Shown here: one piece after another, positions 43,957-59,244 of the stretch
Position numbering within the stretch: the stretch's first letter is position 1
Layout: every line of letters begins with the position of its first letter
NCBI GenBank assembly: GCA_965218975.1
Contig: OZ244717.1
Location: 992,001 to 1,056,000, forward strand
Reading direction: 5' to 3'
Length of the DNA: 64,000 nt
Origin: Candidatus Oxydemutatoraceae bacterium
Lineage (GTDB): Bacteria; Pseudomonadota; Gammaproteobacteria; Poriferisulfidales; Oxydemutatoraceae
The notes under the pieces: generated by a model
What the model was told of the DNA's origin: nothing
Databases searched by the model: none
Seen by the model: the letters and a program-made list of their open reading frames with translations, nothing else
Made by a program: the position numbers and the translations under genes

Positions 43957-46900
43957 ATGAGTGAACAGCGATCAGCAGCAGCACAGAGTGACAACAACCT
44001 TACCCCCGGCGATGTGATCGCCGGTTTGGAAGCGAACGAGCTCGTCCAAGTCCAACGCGTTGCCTCGTTCGGAGACAAGACTCTAGTTGAAGGAGTTGGG
44101 CTTCAGTCCCGGCGTCTTGTGAAGCGTCCTCTAGCTCCCGACGAGTTCGCCACGCTCGAAAAGGTACGTGGGCAACAGTATTCGTTTGATGGTGACCCGC
44201 ATCTTTTCCTTCTCGGAGCGGAGGCGGAGCGTATCCGCATCGCTCACCAGTTTGACCCGCTCTTCGCGGTCAACTCCAGCATCGTTGACCCGCTTCCCCA
44301 TCAGATTGAAGCGGTTTATCGCTATCTCCTTCCTCTGCCGAGAATCCGCTTCTTGCTTGCTGACGACACGGGAGCCGGCAAAACGATCATGGCCGGACTC
44401 CTGATTAAACAGTTGCTCTTCCAAAGGGTAATTCAGAAGATCCTTATCATCACACCAGGGGGATTGACGAAGCAGTGGGCGGAGGAAGAACTCCAGGAGA
44501 AGTTCGGCCTCTACGCACGACTAGTAAACCGCGCATCCTTTGACGCAGAACCCGGCCAGTTTTCTCGTTACGAAGAGGGGATCTTCGTCACATCCATTGA
44601 TTTTCTCGCGCGGAACGAAGGATGTCTCAACGCTGTCTCCGCAACGCGGTGGGACCTTGTGGTGGTTGACGAGGCGCACAAACTCTCCGCATATGAGTAC
44701 GGCACGAAGCTGGAAGAGAGCGAACGGTATAAAGCTGTAAAAGCGCTTACCAACAAGACTGATCATCTGCTCTTCCTTACAGCGACTCCTCATCGAGGAA
44801 GAAAGGATACTTTTCGCCGCCTGCTGCTACTGCTTGACGAAGATCTCTTTCGGAAGGACGAGCATGTTGCCGACCGGGTAAGACAAGAGGCGACGACGCA
44901 TCAAGCACCCACCGAAGAGGATTTAGAGGTTGAGCGCCCGATTAGCAATGCTAGAAATCGGTTCTTTCTCCGTCGTTTGAAGGAGGAAATGGTTGATTGG
45001 GATAACCAAGCGCTGTTCAAGAACCGCCACACGAAGACCATTGGCTACGACCTTACGCCAGAAGAAAAAGCTCTCTACGACGAGGTAACAAGCTATGTCC
45101 GCTCCAAGCGCAAGGAGGCCAAGGCGAAGAAGAATCGCAACGTGGAGCTGACTCTTATGGTCATGCAACGCCGGCTGGCCAGCAGCCTCTACGCGATCAC
45201 GAAGACTTTGGAAAACCGGTTGAATGCCCTCGCGAAGGTCCTCGCGATCCTTAGAGATCCAAGCCGCTCAGAAACAGAGAAGAAGCGCCTGTTCCGGGGT
45301 GATGTTGCGTCTAGTGACCCGCGTGACATCACTGAATACGAGGACTTGACCGAAGAGGAACGGGAGCGCATTGACCGACGGATCTTTCATCAGGTCTTGA
45401 CGGATGACCCGGCAAAAGTTGAAGAGGAACGCAGCGAAGTCGAGAGGCTCTTTCGTTTCGCCGACAGCCTGAAGCACCATAAGGAAGCAAAGTTCATCGA
45501 GCTTCTCGCCGTCCTGGACTCCTCTGATATTATTCGGGCGGATGATGAAAAGCTCGTTATCTTCACAGAACACCGGGACACGCTCAACAACCTCACGACG
45601 CGTCTTGAAGAGAAAGGCTACTCGGTCGCAACGATTCACGGCGGCATGGACGTGGATTCGCGCAAGCAAGCCCAGTGCCAGTTCCGGATGAGAGCCAAGA
45701 TCATGGTGGCGACAGATGCCGCAGGCGAAGGCATCAACCTCCAGTTCTGCCGCTACCTGATCAATTGGGACATCCCGTGGAACCCCAACAGGCTGGAACA
45801 GCGGATGGGGCGTATCCATCGCTACGGTCAAGCGGACGATGTGTGGGTCTACAACCTGGTCGCCCAGAACACCCGAGAGGGGTCGGTTCTTGAGAAGTTG
45901 CTCTCGAAGATGGACATTATGCGCGAGCAGATGGGATCGGACCGGGTCTACGACGTGATTGATGATTGGCTGAAAGACGTGCCTCTGGTTCGGCTCATCG
46001 AGAGAGCTATCGACTCGGACGACGAGACGGAGAGTGCCCGGGAGACCGATGTGGCCTTGTCGTCGGCATCGAGCCAGCGGGCCGAGCGACTGATGGCCCT
46101 GCAGAAGAAGACGTCTCTGGTTTCGCGTCTCGACTTGCGGTCGGCCCGTGAACTGCGCGATGCATCGGATGAGCGCCGACTGCAGCCGTTGTTCATACAG
46201 CGGTTCTTCGAACACGCGTGGACGGCGTGTGGAGGCACCATCCGCAAAGACGATCACTTTCCGGTGTGGCACATCGGCGTCACACCAACCGCACTCCTTG
46301 AGCGCACTCGGGAACAGCGACAGGCACTGTTCGACAGAAACGAAACTCCCTTCGTGTTCGATAAGCAGCTTGTCAGCGTCGCGAGCAAGGCGCGCATTCC
46401 GGAGCGCACAAAGCTCATGGGTCCGGGGCACCCTCTGTTCGATGCGCTGATTGAATGGACCATTTCCGAGGCGCGCCAAGCTTTCGCAAAAGGGGCAATT
46501 CTCGTAGATCCCAACATTACCAAACCGCGGCGGATCTGGCTGGTCCGTTCGACCATTGACGATGGGCGTCGCCAACGGCACCAGGAAGATTGCAAAACGC
46601 CAGCCTACGAACGATTGGCTGTCGTGCTGCAGGACCATCGCGACCTCCGCGCGACTTCGTCCTCCTACCTGCTGAACTGCACGGCGCCGGAGGCTGATAT
46701 CCCGCCGCCCGAAATCGCGCCGAGGCGCGCCGAGGAGATACAGTTATGGGCCTATGAGCAGATTACCGAACAGCAGCTTGAGCACGTCAAAACCATTCGA
46801 TCCGAGGAGTGCAACCTACGTCGGCAGTACCTGAACACGGCATTTACGGACCTTATCCTCGAGCTTCAGGAAGAGCTGAATGACTTCCAACAAGCGCATC

Positions 46901-56394: not shown

Positions 56395-59244
56395 GTGACG
56401 AATGAAACGCTCAAGCCTTGGTATGCTGTTGCGACGCCCCACAAGGATATTCGAGAGGGGCGTCTCGCCGAGGCGATATTCGCCGCCGACATCTGGGCAG
56501 TGATCCAGGGAACGGCGCCTGAGGTCTATCTGGACGCCGAGGAGTTTTTCCGCAAGACCTACATGACGACCGGATTGTCCACGATGATCAACCGGGTCGC
56601 GGGAGCGCTGAGCCGCGCAGGTGACACCGGGGACCGCATCGTTAGTCTTCAGACCGCCTTCGGCGGCGGCAAGACACACACATTGGTAGCGCTATGGCAT
56701 TTGGCGCGGCACGCCGATCGGCTCCAGGACTCGCCTCATGCGGAACACCTTCGGCAAGCCGTTGGCGGGCGACTGCCCGAGGAAGTGAACGGTATTGCCG
56801 TGTTCACCAACCAGACCTGCGACGCGACCCAGGGGCACAAGGTCGCCGACGGAGTTCACCTGCGCACGTTGTGGGGCGAGTTAGCGTACCAGCTCGGCGG
56901 GCGGGCGCTCTATGAGCGTGTGCGAGCAAACGACGAGAGCCGGCGGGTTCCGCAGGGACTCTTCGTCGAAATCCTGAAGGCTGCATCGCCATGCCTGATT
57001 CTCTTGGACGAACTGGCTGACTACTGCGTGGGGGCAGCGGGGGTGCCCGTCGGAGATACGAGTCTTGCCGATCAAACCGTTTCCTTCATCCAGCAGCTCA
57101 CCGAGTCCGTGCAGCAAGTCCCGGGTGCGGTCGTGATCGCGACCCTACCAGGAAGCAAGTACGAAGTGGCGCAGAGCGAGAAGGCACAGGAAGCCTTCGT
57201 GACGCTGGAAAAACGTTTCCAGCGTCTTGGTGCCGACGTCAAGCCGGTCGGGGACCGGGAGATCCATGAGGTTGTCCGTGCCCGACTGTTCGAATCCATC
57301 GCGCCTCAGAATGAGCCGGACTATCCCGCGAAAGTTGCCCAAGCCTATCAGGGCATGTATGCGTCGCATGCCAACGAGGTGCCTCCGGAAGCTGCCAAGA
57401 ACACCTACCGGGAGCAGATCCGGCGCGCGTATCCCTTCCACCCGCTGCTCATCGATACGCTTTACACTCGTTGGGGCAGCCATCCTGACTTCCAGCGAAC
57501 GCGCGGCGTATTGCGTCTGTTGGCGAGTATCGTTGAGGATCTTTGGAAACGTCGGCAAGGAAACACGCGAACGCAGCACCTGATCCAGCCGTGCGACGTG
57601 CGCTGGTCCATTGATGCTGCACAGGCAGTGTTGACGCGCCTTTGGGGGTCGTCGTACCAGTCTGTTGCCGCCGCCGACGTTATCGGGGATAAATCTAATT
57701 CCGGCGCCTTTGACGAGGAACGTGGAGGTAGCTACCGGAGCGAGGCCATCGGTCAAGGGCTGGCGTCCGCTATTCTTCTTGGCTCGTTTGGAGGGCAAGG
57801 GGGCCGAAGCGGATTCACCTCCAAGGACCTGAAGCTCGCGTGTTCGCGGCGAGGTCTGAATTGGAACTATGGCGACGGCGCATTGCTGGAGCTGGAGAAC
57901 AGGTGCTTCTATCTCCACACGACAATGGCTGGAAACCTAGGGAAGCGATACTGGTTCGGGACGAAGCCGACGCTCAACAAGCTGGTGGTCCAGTACCGTC
58001 AGCAGAGCGCGAACCGATACTTCAACGAAGCGATCACCGAGGACCTTCGAACGGAGTCCCAGAAAGGTGCCCTGGCCGGCGCGACGTGGCGCGTAATCGT
58101 CAATCCCGGGCAGGATCTACCGGAGCAGAAGTCTCTCTCGGTGCTGATCCTACCGCCAGCGCTTGCCTGGGACGAGAACGGGGGCGCGAAGGATGCGGTC
58201 CGGGAAAGGGTGAAGTCCATCAGCGCCAAGTGCGGTGCCAGGGATCGCTTGTACCGCAATACACTCGTTTTCCTTGCAGGCACCGCGCGCGGGCTCCGTA
58301 AACTGCGGCAGGCTTATCAGAAGCGCGTCGCTCTCGAGGGAGTCCGCGCGGATTACTGGGTCCAGCTCGACAACGAGCAGCAAGACGATCTCAAGAAGCG
58401 CCTCGACATCGCGGATCGGGCAGCTTTGGCGGCGCTAGGCGCAGCGTACACGGTCGCTCTGCACGTACGCGGGCAGGACGTGGAAGATTGTTCTCTCTCC
58501 GATGCGCGACACAGCTTCCAGGAACATCTCGGATACGTCTGGACGACGTTGGTCGAAGACGAAGAGTGGATTCTGCGTCGCGTCGGCTCGGTCACCTTGC
58601 AAGACACCGGCATGATCCCCAAGGAAGGTGGACTCCGTTTGAAGGAAGCAGTCGAGGCTTTCCTGCGATTCACCGACAAGCCGATGGTTGCAACCAAGGA
58701 TGCTGTAACCGTCGGATTGGCGCGGGCGTGCGAGGACGGGCTCTTGGGCATCGGTCGCGGTGGAGGCGTTTCCTCGCTTCTAACGCGGCACTGTCGACAG
58801 CCGGTCTCGCTCGACCCGACCGAGGACGGTGTCTGGATCATCCCGTCCTTCAATCCTATACCTGCGACAGAGTCCGGAGACGAGGAGACACGCGGCACCG
58901 GCATCGACGAAGGACAGACGGGCTACAGCCCCGGTGCGGATGGGGGGACAAGAACTGTTACCGGCGAAGATGGCGGCGAAACCACTACAGACCTGGAAAC
59001 TTCCGACAAGGGCGCGGTTCGGCGCTTTGTCGTTCAGGGTGAGGTACCCGTCGAAAGTTGGGCCGATCTTTTCCGCTGCTTCGTCGGCCCCGCAGCGCAG
59101 ATGCGTTTGAAGAAGCTTGGGCTCGGTGTCCGGTTCGAGATGGTGCTCCCGGAAAACGGGGCGTTGAGCGAAGACGATCCGACGCTCAAGGCAATGAAGG
59201 AGGCCGCGAGACAGCTGGGTCTGACGCTCCGGTTCGAGGATTAA
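56395..59244 (+). CDS. DUF499-family AAA+ ATPase
   Basis: [52 protein letters not shown] Shine-Dalgarno upstream of GTG. Confidence 0.9.

Follow-up and report, generated by a model that had tools for sequence, protein, structure and literature searches.

The window analysed here, a 64,000-nucleotide (nt) stretch of contig OZ244717.1 (assembly GCA_965218975.1, positions 992,001–1,056,000 of the forward strand) from Candidatus Oxydemutatoraceae bacterium, contains six co-oriented and uninterrupted open reading frames (ORFs) on the + strand at 43957–59244, about 15.3 kb in total. These ORFs probably constitute a four-gene variant of the catalogued Hma system, in the order hmaA-uvrD-hmaB-hmaC, with one TrlF-TrlG (TrlFG) cassette nested in it, possibly as a guard-type back-up. 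The first-pass annotation of this DNA had picked out the same six ORFs, which the ORF listing of the window confirms, and had read them as a possibly undescribed six-gene subtype. The latter view is very unlikely to hold, because the core (genes 1, 5 and 6) is already catalogued as Hma and genes 2 and 3 are an independent pair. Its idea of a second effector layer supplied by the middle genes is plausible.

The core genes encode a putative Hma system

Matches to PADLOC v2 hidden Markov models assign genes 1, 5 and 6 to the HmaA, HmaB and HmaC families of Hma, a catalogued system. Gene 1 (hmaA; 43957–47529, +; 1190 aa), predicted to encode an SNF2 translocase with a C-terminal NOV_C/DUF3883 PD-(D/E)xK nuclease, matched the HmaA model PDLC00659 with an E-value of 3.2e-195 (residues 14–1134 on model positions 6–1130 of 1176). 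Gene 5 (hmaB; 53413–56376, +; 987 aa), encoding a putative DUF1156 N6-adenine-type DNA methyltransferase, matched the HmaB models PDLC00661 (E = 1.8e-127) and PDLC00660 (E = 3.7e-125), and gene 6 (hmaC; 56395–59244, +; 949 aa), encoding a putative DUF499 AAA+/STAND-like ATPase, matched the HmaC model PDLC00662 (E = 7e-132). The three genes are co-oriented within 15.3 kb, with three genes (5.9 kb) between hmaA and hmaB. Models of the restriction-like (RL) type were far weaker, with E-values of 1.6e-31 for PLD_Helicase on gene 1, where it covers the helicase core at residues 579–676 only, 6.3e-40 for DUF1156_MTase on gene 5 and 1.6e-39 for DUF499 on gene 6. The earlier recognition of a DUF499 ATPase, a DUF1156 methylase and an SNF2 helicase as a restriction-like core related to bacteriophage exclusion (BREX) systems is therefore upheld by the HmaA, HmaB and HmaC matches.

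All catalytic motifs of this core are intact. Gene 1 contains the Pfam domains SNF2-rel_dom, Helicase_C and NOV_C (= DUF3883), with GAGKT139, DEAH238 and QRMGRIHR615 as motifs I, II and VI and D1088...E1102-V-K1104 as the nuclease residues. Gene 5 contains DUF1156 and UPF0020 with the motifs DPFAGGG192 and DPPY602, and gene 6 contains DUF499 as its only Pfam domain, with FGGGKTH (Walker A GKT at 92–94) and the Walker B motif LILLDE201. The helicase, methylase and ATPase motifs that the first reading had called intact were thus all located, and the nuclease residues as well.

Payne 2021 (PMC8565338) introduced Hma as a candidate system of three genes (helicase, methylase and ATPase) and counted 1,638 instances in 26 phyla. 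A 2025 preprint renames it type-1 BREX-related (BR), reports a fusion of helicase and restriction endonuclease in 79% of type-1 BR taxa and defines type 2 BR by DUF3780 together with an HKD (phospholipase D, PLD) helicase (bioRxiv 10.1101/2025.10.09.681413). As reported for Halomonas, HmaA by itself protected Escherichia coli against T4, its defence required motif VI and the nuclease residues D1084/E1104/K1106/E1121, and its C-terminal region nicked supercoiled plasmid (Liu 2024, PMC11232893). Motifs equivalent to these functional residues are present in gene 1 of the window.

Several features previously taken as departures from known systems now appear in a different light. The absence of DUF3780 and PLD stands as an observation, with zero Pfam hits in the six proteins and in the 12 flanking ORFs scanned. 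Together with the C-terminal DUF3883, it is a defining trait of catalogued Hma rather than an anomaly; the DUF3780/PLD form is a different subtype (RL, type 2). Nor are extra genes inside the core unusual, since such insertions are already published: inserted genes occur in about 66.5% of hma loci, with Septu, PARIS and Ppl given as inserts within Halomonas hma (Liu 2024, PMC11232893). The RL identity of Gao was rejected because of the missing DUF3780 in these 18 ORFs, the missing PLD domain and the weaker RL scores, and BREX proper (types 1–6) was rejected because PglZ gave no hit and the BrxC model matched gene 6 with an E-value of only 5.1e-5.

Genes 2 and 3 form a predicted TrlF-TrlG pair

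Genes 2 and 3 are assignable to a TrlF-TrlG pair from their sequences. Gene 2 (trlF-like; 47526–50228, +; 900 aa) encodes a putative N-terminal PHP phosphoesterase fused to an SMC/Rad50-like ATP-binding cassette (ABC) ATPase (Pfam PHP, SMC_N, AAA_23 and AAA_21). It matched the NCBIfam TrlF family NF045780 with 490.1 bits against a cut-off of 350 (E = 2.1e-146; residues 16–899 on 2–944 of 944). It carries the motifs DHN67, GGRGTGKST307, STGQ778, LIVDQPE798 and STHN833, with a long insert separating the Walker A motif (307) from the signature and Walker B motifs (778/798), and the residues H68, H101, H156 and H278 are invariant across 24 homologues. The single-gene Ppl identity was rejected for gene 2, which scored 187.8 bits on the NCBIfam Ppl family NF042955, below the family cut-off of 1000, and is paired with gene 3; the PADLOC Ppl model matched it with an E-value of 4.4e-40. 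Models of GajA matched only its P-loop (E of about 3e-5 or weaker), and no TOPRIM domain was found in it by Pfam. Its best match among solved structures is AriA (E = 0.0015), and structure searches gave no close solved structure for gene 2, 3, 5 or 6.

Gene 3 (trlG-like; 50232–51470, +; 412 aa) is predicted to encode a Schlafen-like AlbA_2 domain, a middle domain and a GHKL-like HATPase_c_4 domain (Pfam SLFN_AlbA_2 at 14–131 and HATPase_c_4 at 317–405). Its predicted model is confident (predicted local distance difference test, pLDDT, of 90.8). The whole chain of the model matches the fold of 3lmm, the N-terminal domain matches Schlafen 5/11/12/13/14 and SAMD9 tRNase domains, and the C-terminal part matches GHKL kinases. 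A conserved cluster comprises E14 (65/65), E19 (63/65), K21 (65/65) and D52 (59/65), the E-x4-E...D spacing of which presumably resembles the Schlafen catalytic triad. The clusters nearest to gene 3 in the protein atlas are labelled "RecG", a misnomer that it shares with TrlG. A complex prediction with residues 283–900 of gene 2 and 1–382 of gene 3 (chains cut, no controls) gave a score of 0.00 and a mark of 0.32, values that favour neither binding nor its absence.

The temperature restriction locus (TRL, trlR-trlF-trlG) was described in Photorhabdus laumondii (bioRxiv 10.1101/2020.06.02.129163; PMC7554251). There, TrlG consists of AlbA_2 and HATPase_c_4 and is misannotated as RecG, TrlF is annotated as "histidinol phosphatase", and the reported phenotype is temperature-restricted growth, with transcription rising at 36 °C. 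Mutations restoring growth at 36 °C fell in trlG and, as far as that report describes, never in the larger trlF, and deletion of the whole trl operon is tolerated (bioRxiv 10.1101/2020.06.02.129163).

TrlF-TrlG recurs inside restriction operons

A genome scan anchored on an alignment of gene 2 homologues matched at least 600 stretches, and the best 80 of 590 confirmed loci, with 10-kb flanks, were searched with the six window proteins by tblastn (E ≤ 1e-10, coverage ≥ 0.3). Of the 78 loci that leave 1300 nt or more 3′ of TrlF, 68 have a co-oriented gene 3 homologue beginning no more than 300 nt further downstream (median gap 12 nt), two of the 80 loci being left out of this count for too little downstream sequence. 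Seven of the ten loci without a downstream gene 3 homologue have the most distant TrlF (39–48% identity; L060, L062, L072–L074, L076 and L077); L011 (63%), L068 (54%) and L079 (45%, a partial match) make up the rest. Hma-like genes were found near TrlF in eight of the 80 loci, at varying positions, and in none of the remaining 72, and a gene 4 homologue was found by tblastn in 0 of the 80. The 148 immediate neighbour ORFs are heterogeneous, including housekeeping genes, transposases and many genes with restriction-modification (RM) or defence domains; heterogeneity also applies to the ORFs upstream of TrlF.

PADLOC maps of the eight Hma-like loci, which took in 74 of the 90 ORFs of at least 200 aa, placed TrlFG between HmaA and HmaB in L029 and L046, as in the window, between HmaB and HmaC in L012 and L019, 3′ of HmaC in L040, and beside broken Hma genes in L021 and L075. 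The eighth locus, L004, is a true RL system with TrlFG between the methylase and the PLD helicase. A similar arrangement, hmaB-[PHP/AAA_21]-[HATPase_c_4/AlbA_2]-hmaC, is given for Methylococcus capsulatus Bath in the supplement of Liu 2024 (PMC11232893). On plasmids, genes of the TrlF family occur in 322 records, 231 of them conjugative, and TrlG-like genes in 45 records, nearly always beside an annotated TrlF among the 40 listed; two inspected plasmid TrlF genes stand alone. On a Vibrio parahaemolyticus plasmid (L085) the pair lies between pglX and pglZ of BREX-1, with a TrlG 40% identical to gene 3 (E = 4e-95). Two IncC plasmids carry it in type I RM operons (L087 and L088), as hsdM-hsdS-[TrlF-TrlG]-hsdR in Citrobacter and as hsdR-[TrlF-TrlG]-hsdS-AAA-hsdM in E. 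coli. Genes of RM, BREX or Hma type were found in the flanks of 23 of the 80 loci with a limited query set, some queries of which came from the same loci. PADLOC v2 has no TrlF-TrlG model; TrlF homologues match Ppl weakly and TrlG homologues match parts of pAgo-associated models. The distribution of these loci characterizes TrlF-TrlG as a putatively autonomous, mobile two-gene cassette that is recurrent inside four kinds of restriction operon.

Several of these loci show peculiarities of their own. An Acidobacteria metagenome-assembled genome (L030:1560–16189) contains two TrlF-TrlG-like pairs between PglX-like and PglZ-like genes, one at 3668–7636 with 26–32% identity and the other at 10001–13871 with 47–57%. 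Two of the 66 full-length gene 3 homologues (L080:12719–13942 and L066:12697–13902) have an in-frame stop codon and are therefore possibly inactivated. In a Dehalococcoidia locus, two Pycsar cyclase (PycC) genes lie directly 3′ of HmaC (L019:17650–19716), another sign of defence-gene clustering around Hma. The Hma operon of L046 carries several nested cargos: besides TrlFG it has two ATPase genes of the HEC-01A type and one for an AlbA-like protein of 623 aa, at 6103–9510 and 16981–18225.

A UvrD-type helicase as a probable companion of hmaB

Gene 4 (51467–53416, +; 649 aa) encodes a putative UvrD-like superfamily 1 (SF1) helicase with the Pfam domains UvrD-helicase, UvrD_C and AAA_19 and the motifs I, II, III, V and VI (GPGTGKT39, DEYQD220, GDEDQSVY246, SLHKSKG536 and VAVTR581). 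The start at 51467 had been given without comment; the longest ORF actually begins at 51446 (51446–53416; 656 aa), and the internal GTG at 51467 is nevertheless the likelier start because the close homologues have 641–649 aa. The family is conserved: each of the best 120 homologues, drawn from several phyla, shows 61% identity or more to gene 4.

Co-occurrence was approximated by equal size of the longest contig among the best 120 matches of genes 2, 4 and 5. At least 27 of 119 contig sizes are shared by genes 4 and 5 against about 0.18 expected from near-miss pairs, roughly 150 times chance, and 21 of the 27 coincidences are on contigs of at most 25 kb. When contigs of at least 9 kb are considered, 27 of 75 gene 4 homologues coincide with the gene 5 list, versus only five of 88 gene 2 homologues with the top HmaB relatives among the matches listed. 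On the same terms, genes 2 and 4 share three sizes and all three genes share two.

Read-through proteins point in the same direction. Residues 1–304 of P0142 are 81% identical to HmaA 821–1124; about 66 residues without a significant match follow, which is the length of the remaining HmaA tail, and UvrD domains 74% identical to gene 4 begin at about residue 393. P0157 is of the same kind, with the HmaA C-terminus running into UvrD, and P0263 joins HmaB to the C-terminal part of a UvrD that is 73% identical to residues 327–615 of gene 4. These proteins indicate that close relatives have hmaA, then uvrD, then hmaB, and the TrlFG of the window would be inserted exactly at the hmaA/uvrD junction. 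A related order, hmaA-hyp-DUF1828-UvrD-hmaB-hmaC, is listed for Syntrophus aciditrophicus in the supplement of Liu 2024 (PMC11232893). From matching contig sizes and read-through ORFs, gene 4 is best regarded as a likely lineage-specific companion of hmaB that belongs with the Hma core. The middle genes therefore do not behave alike among homologous loci: variation was borne out for genes 2 and 3, but gene 4 is not random and co-occurs with HmaB. Searching plasmids by tblastn returned only clades at about 30% identity with HmaB as the query, and with gene 4 a helicase remnant between insertion sequence (IS) elements and otherwise generic UvrD/Rep matches only.

P0220, a close relative of gene 4 (65% identity), is a fusion in which the helicase follows a YgjP-like metallopeptidase domain at the N-terminus, which places this helicase family in an architecture outside Hma as well. 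Interpreting genes 2 and 4 as Gabija-like was rejected for the lack of TOPRIM, the P-loop-only match to GajA and the absence of gene 4 from all 80 TrlF loci.

Proposed mechanism and alternative explanations

In the proposed mechanism, HmaB would methylate adenines of the host DNA as a self mark, and HmaC, as a STAND-like DUF499 ATPase, would act in sensing or scaffolding on unmarked DNA. HmaA could translocate along and nick DNA with its C-terminal PD-(D/E)xK domain, as its Halomonas homologue suggests, and the UvrD-type helicase, translationally coupled to hmaB, may enter the target DNA at nicks made by HmaA, or at ends, and unwind it. TrlF is predicted to combine a Ppl-like PHP nuclease with an SMC-like ABC ATPase, and TrlG a Schlafen-like nuclease domain with a GHKL-like ATP-binding part. 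TrlFG would most likely be a back-up of the abortive-infection type, in which TrlG is the growth-arresting effector, restrained or triggered by TrlF, and loss of TrlF alone might be harmful. This division of roles is suggested because the suppressors at 36 °C fell in trlG and never in trlF and because deletion of the whole operon is tolerated. PrrC in EcoprrI and PARIS are back-up effectors that act when restriction is blocked, and such guard logic serves as the model for the TrlFG trigger: the cassette would possibly fire when the surrounding restriction system is disabled. The TrlG-effector genetics and the nesting in restriction operons together suggest a guard-type back-up. Back-up effectors consisting of Schlafen, a minimal kinase and a winged helix-turn-helix protein have been associated with BREX and BR loci in no fewer than 1017 taxa (bioRxiv 10.1101/2025.10.09.681413).

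Several observations weigh against this reading of the locus. No trlR-like regulator precedes gene 2, the start of which overlaps the hmaA stop and leaves no room for one, and 57 of the 80 TrlFG loci have no RM-type gene in their flanks with the limited queries used and no random-locus control. The phenotype on record for TrlFG is temperature-dependent growth arrest only (bioRxiv 10.1101/2020.06.02.129163). Among hmaA loci, hmaB is absent in 14.7% and hmaC in 19.3%, and in the experiments reported, phage from an HmaB-overproducing host was unaltered and HmaB had no effect on T4 sensitivity (PMC11232893). RM-like self-marking by HmaB is therefore unproven, because HmaA alone protects, hmaB and hmaC are not always present and phage from the HmaB host is unchanged. 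The link between UvrD and Hma is indirect, through contig-size matches and read-through ORFs; at least 92 of the 119 top HmaB relatives have no contig-size match to UvrD among the matches listed, and a Rhodococcus plasmid Hma from another clade has the order HmaA-HmaB-(IS)-HmaC and no UvrD. The neighbours of the operon are decayed (a split hsdR and a peptidase fragment), which argues that the island is not under uniform selection, and the Hma defence and TrlFG back-up roles at this particular locus are predicted.

Could the six genes nonetheless be one integrated, co-evolved system of a new subtype, with PHP-ATPase, AlbA-like protein and UvrD as obligatory parts? The junctions are tight, as had been pointed out and was found in each case: GTGA sequences at 47526, 51467 and 53413 in which start and stop overlap, 3 nt between genes 2 and 3 (50229–50231) and 18 nt between hmaB and hmaC (56377–56394), the latter with a Shine-Dalgarno-like AAGGAGG (56381–56387, +, by sequence inspection). 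They suggest a single transcript and translational coupling, and the GC content at third codon positions (GC3) of the six genes is uniform (0.60–0.71 versus 0.44–0.50 in the host). Moreover, the contig sizes 17542 and 19690 recur in the match lists of genes 2, 4 and 5, so this combination of genes probably exists elsewhere (71–80% identity). Nevertheless, such obligate integration is very unlikely: 72 of the 80 loci have the pair but no Hma gene, and none of the 80 has it with gene 4, it occupies differing positions in other Hma operons and occurs also in BREX-1, RL and type I RM operons, a close relative runs from hmaA directly into uvrD with genes 2 and 3 absent, and gene 2 shares far fewer of the longer contigs with the top HmaB relatives than gene 4 does. 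A greater share of the doubt falls on gene 4, which could be a third independent cargo, either a stand-alone helicase defence gene or a Gabija-like remnant, rather than a working part of Hma. The best PADLOC match of gene 4 is GajB (E = 1.6e-53), true Gabija-type AAA_15 + UvrD pairs adjoin Hma in Pelobacter and Desulfitobacterium according to the supplement of Liu 2024 (PMC11232893), the P0220 fusion places the family in another context, and the many HmaB relatives sharing no contig with gene 4 would fit as well. We consider this unlikely, however, because the window has no GajA-type ATPase-TOPRIM gene, relatives have hmaA and hmaB immediately on either side of uvrD, gene 4 overlaps the hmaB start by GTGA in the window, and its coincidence with HmaB is far above the chance expectation.

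A further explanation concerns the cassette itself, which could be, rather than an anti-phage device, a growth-arrest or addiction module that responds to stress or temperature and keeps the islands and plasmids bearing it stable. The Photorhabdus phenotype and its induction at 36 °C, the frequency of the pair on conjugative plasmids and the lack of a PADLOC v2 system model are in keeping with it. Against it, TrlF is related to the anti-phage protein Ppl by the scores given above, TrlFG lies inside restriction or BREX-type operons or beside RM genes in at least 23 of the 80 loci and on several plasmids, such inserts were counted as "Ppl" defence genes by Liu 2024 (PMC11232893), and the Schlafen-containing effectors at BREX/BR loci provide a precedent (bioRxiv 10.1101/2025.10.09.681413); we regard the module explanation as improbable, somewhat more so than an independent gene 4. 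Least credible of all is the view that the operon has fallen silent as a relic of an island in decay. Its neighbours are indeed broken, with hsdR in two ORFs and no hsdM or hsdS, and only a C-terminal fragment of Peptidase_S9, and no integrase or att repeat was found at the island. However, six uninterrupted ORFs over some 15 kb with all catalytic motifs would hardly persist without selection. We thus retain the four-gene Hma variant with one nested TrlFG cassette as the probable explanation.

The genomic island and its surroundings

The operon lies within a 23.7-kb high-GC island (about 37400–61140, i.e., ~37.4–61.1 kb) placed between mutL and tRNA-Ala (61144–61219). Most island genes have a GC content of 0.54–0.61 versus 0.44–0.51 in host genes, and the island GC3 is 0.57–0.77, with the exception of one unassigned 172-aa ORF at 0.49, versus 0.44–0.50 in the flanking chromosome. 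Neither an integrase nor an att-like direct repeat of tRNA-Ala was found for the island, and an Rfam scan of 36000–64000 returned two tRNAs only. On the − strand, a type I restriction gene is split into two ORFs (hsdR N-terminal part, 39176–40447; C-terminal part, 37443–39131), with neither hsdM nor hsdS among the flanking ORFs scanned, and is therefore probably a broken remnant of the same island. The island also contains a Fic/DOC protein with a helix-turn-helix (HTH) tail (41644–42825), divergent from hmaA, as well as msrA (59306–59890) and the C-terminal fragment of Peptidase_S9 (59852–60610).

The 1131-nt gap between the divergent fic and hmaA genes is mostly filled by a tandem repeat (42787–43696; 3.0 copies of a 302-nt unit, 97% identical) with no Rfam match. 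Because the first 39 nt of fic fall in copy 1, the fic start codon recurs in every copy, as do promoter-like hexamers on both strands. The candidate sigma-70-like promoter nearest upstream of hmaA (TTAACC-18-TATAAT, 43499–43528, +; 10/12 matches in a consensus scan) falls within the third copy, and its assignment is uncertain; the same scan of the region gave 11 sites versus 6.3 ± 2.3 in shuffles. The terminator scan performed no better than shuffles (16 versus 17.4), and the operon limits are therefore not set by terminators. Just past tRNA-Ala, a low-GC (0.38) gene pair on the − strand (61484–63123), comprising DUF4411 and an HTH/Peptidase_M78 (ImmA/IrrE-like) protein, looks like a separate foreign insert of the toxin-antitoxin type.

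Implications

The Hma core and embedded cargo in hma are already in print, and annotators should enter the locus under Hma, with embedded cargo, rather than as a new six-gene system. It offers a clean natural case of defence genes nested in a defence operon. The open PMC and bioRxiv literature yielded no description of a UvrD-bearing Hma lineage, nor any that links TrlF-TrlG to phage defence or restriction operons. In the accessible parts of Liu 2024 (PMC11232893), UvrD appears for Gabija and another listed helicase system and not as a part of Hma, and the main text of bioRxiv 10.1101/2025.10.09.681413 mentions neither PHP nor UvrD, although its supplements may cover them. A UvrD-type helicase as an apparently stable fourth gene in one Hma lineage could help to explain how a nickase-only effector arrests phage. 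The wide occurrence of TrlFG and its repeated nesting in restriction operons of four unrelated kinds suggest that it serves as an anti-phage back-up and may depend functionally on the host restriction complex. A more specific proposal, in which UvrD and the HmaA nickase nick and unwind within a four-component Hma and TrlFG is a guard cassette specific to methylation-based restriction operons, is put forward tentatively, and we rather doubt that it holds in full. In such a guard, the Schlafen-like RNase would be released once the host restriction complex is disabled, and if this were true, the "temperature restriction" of Photorhabdus would be autoimmunity of a defence system.

Comparison with known systems

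The locus shares with Hma a co-oriented set of SNF2 helicase with C-terminal NOV_C/DUF3883, DUF1156 methylase and DUF499 ATPase. It differs in the UvrD-type SF1 helicase between hmaA and hmaB, which is outside the published three-gene definition, and in an HmaC without the N-terminal HEPN fusion present in many members. The RL system, reportedly defined by Gao et al. in 2020 as DUF499, DUF1156, DUF3780 and a PLD helicase (PADLOC PDLC02192/02189/02193; type-2 BR), has a homologous ATPase and methylase and likewise a helicase-nuclease effector, whereas the window lacks DUF3780 and PLD/HKD and its nuclease is a C-terminal PD-(D/E)xK domain.

With TRL of Photorhabdus, the window shares a gene 2 in the TrlF family and a gene 3 with the TrlG domain architecture (compared by description); however, the window has the pair inside a different operon, and the Photorhabdus locus lies between polA and dsbA. 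Ppl, which is said to have been presented by Gao in 2020 as a single-gene anti-phage protein, likewise combines a PHP domain and an ABC-type ATPase in a single polypeptide, but gene 2 falls under the Ppl cut-off and its family has a TrlG partner in 68 of 78 loci. Ppl is elsewhere described as uncharacterised (PMC11482910). Gabija, with the ATPase-TOPRIM protein GajA and the UvrD-type GajB, resembles the locus in that a single operon combines a UvrD-like gene with a gene for an ATPase-nuclease, whereas the window has PHP instead of TOPRIM, and genes 2 and 4 are non-adjacent, with gene 3 between them. PrrC in the EcoprrI type I RM system and PARIS (AriA-AriB) have in common with TrlFG an ABC-type ATPase and an RNA-targeting nuclease (predicted in TrlFG) in or beside restriction operons; TrlFG differs from both by the lack of sequence-level membership, by the Schlafen-like character of its predicted nuclease and by the extra PHP domain.

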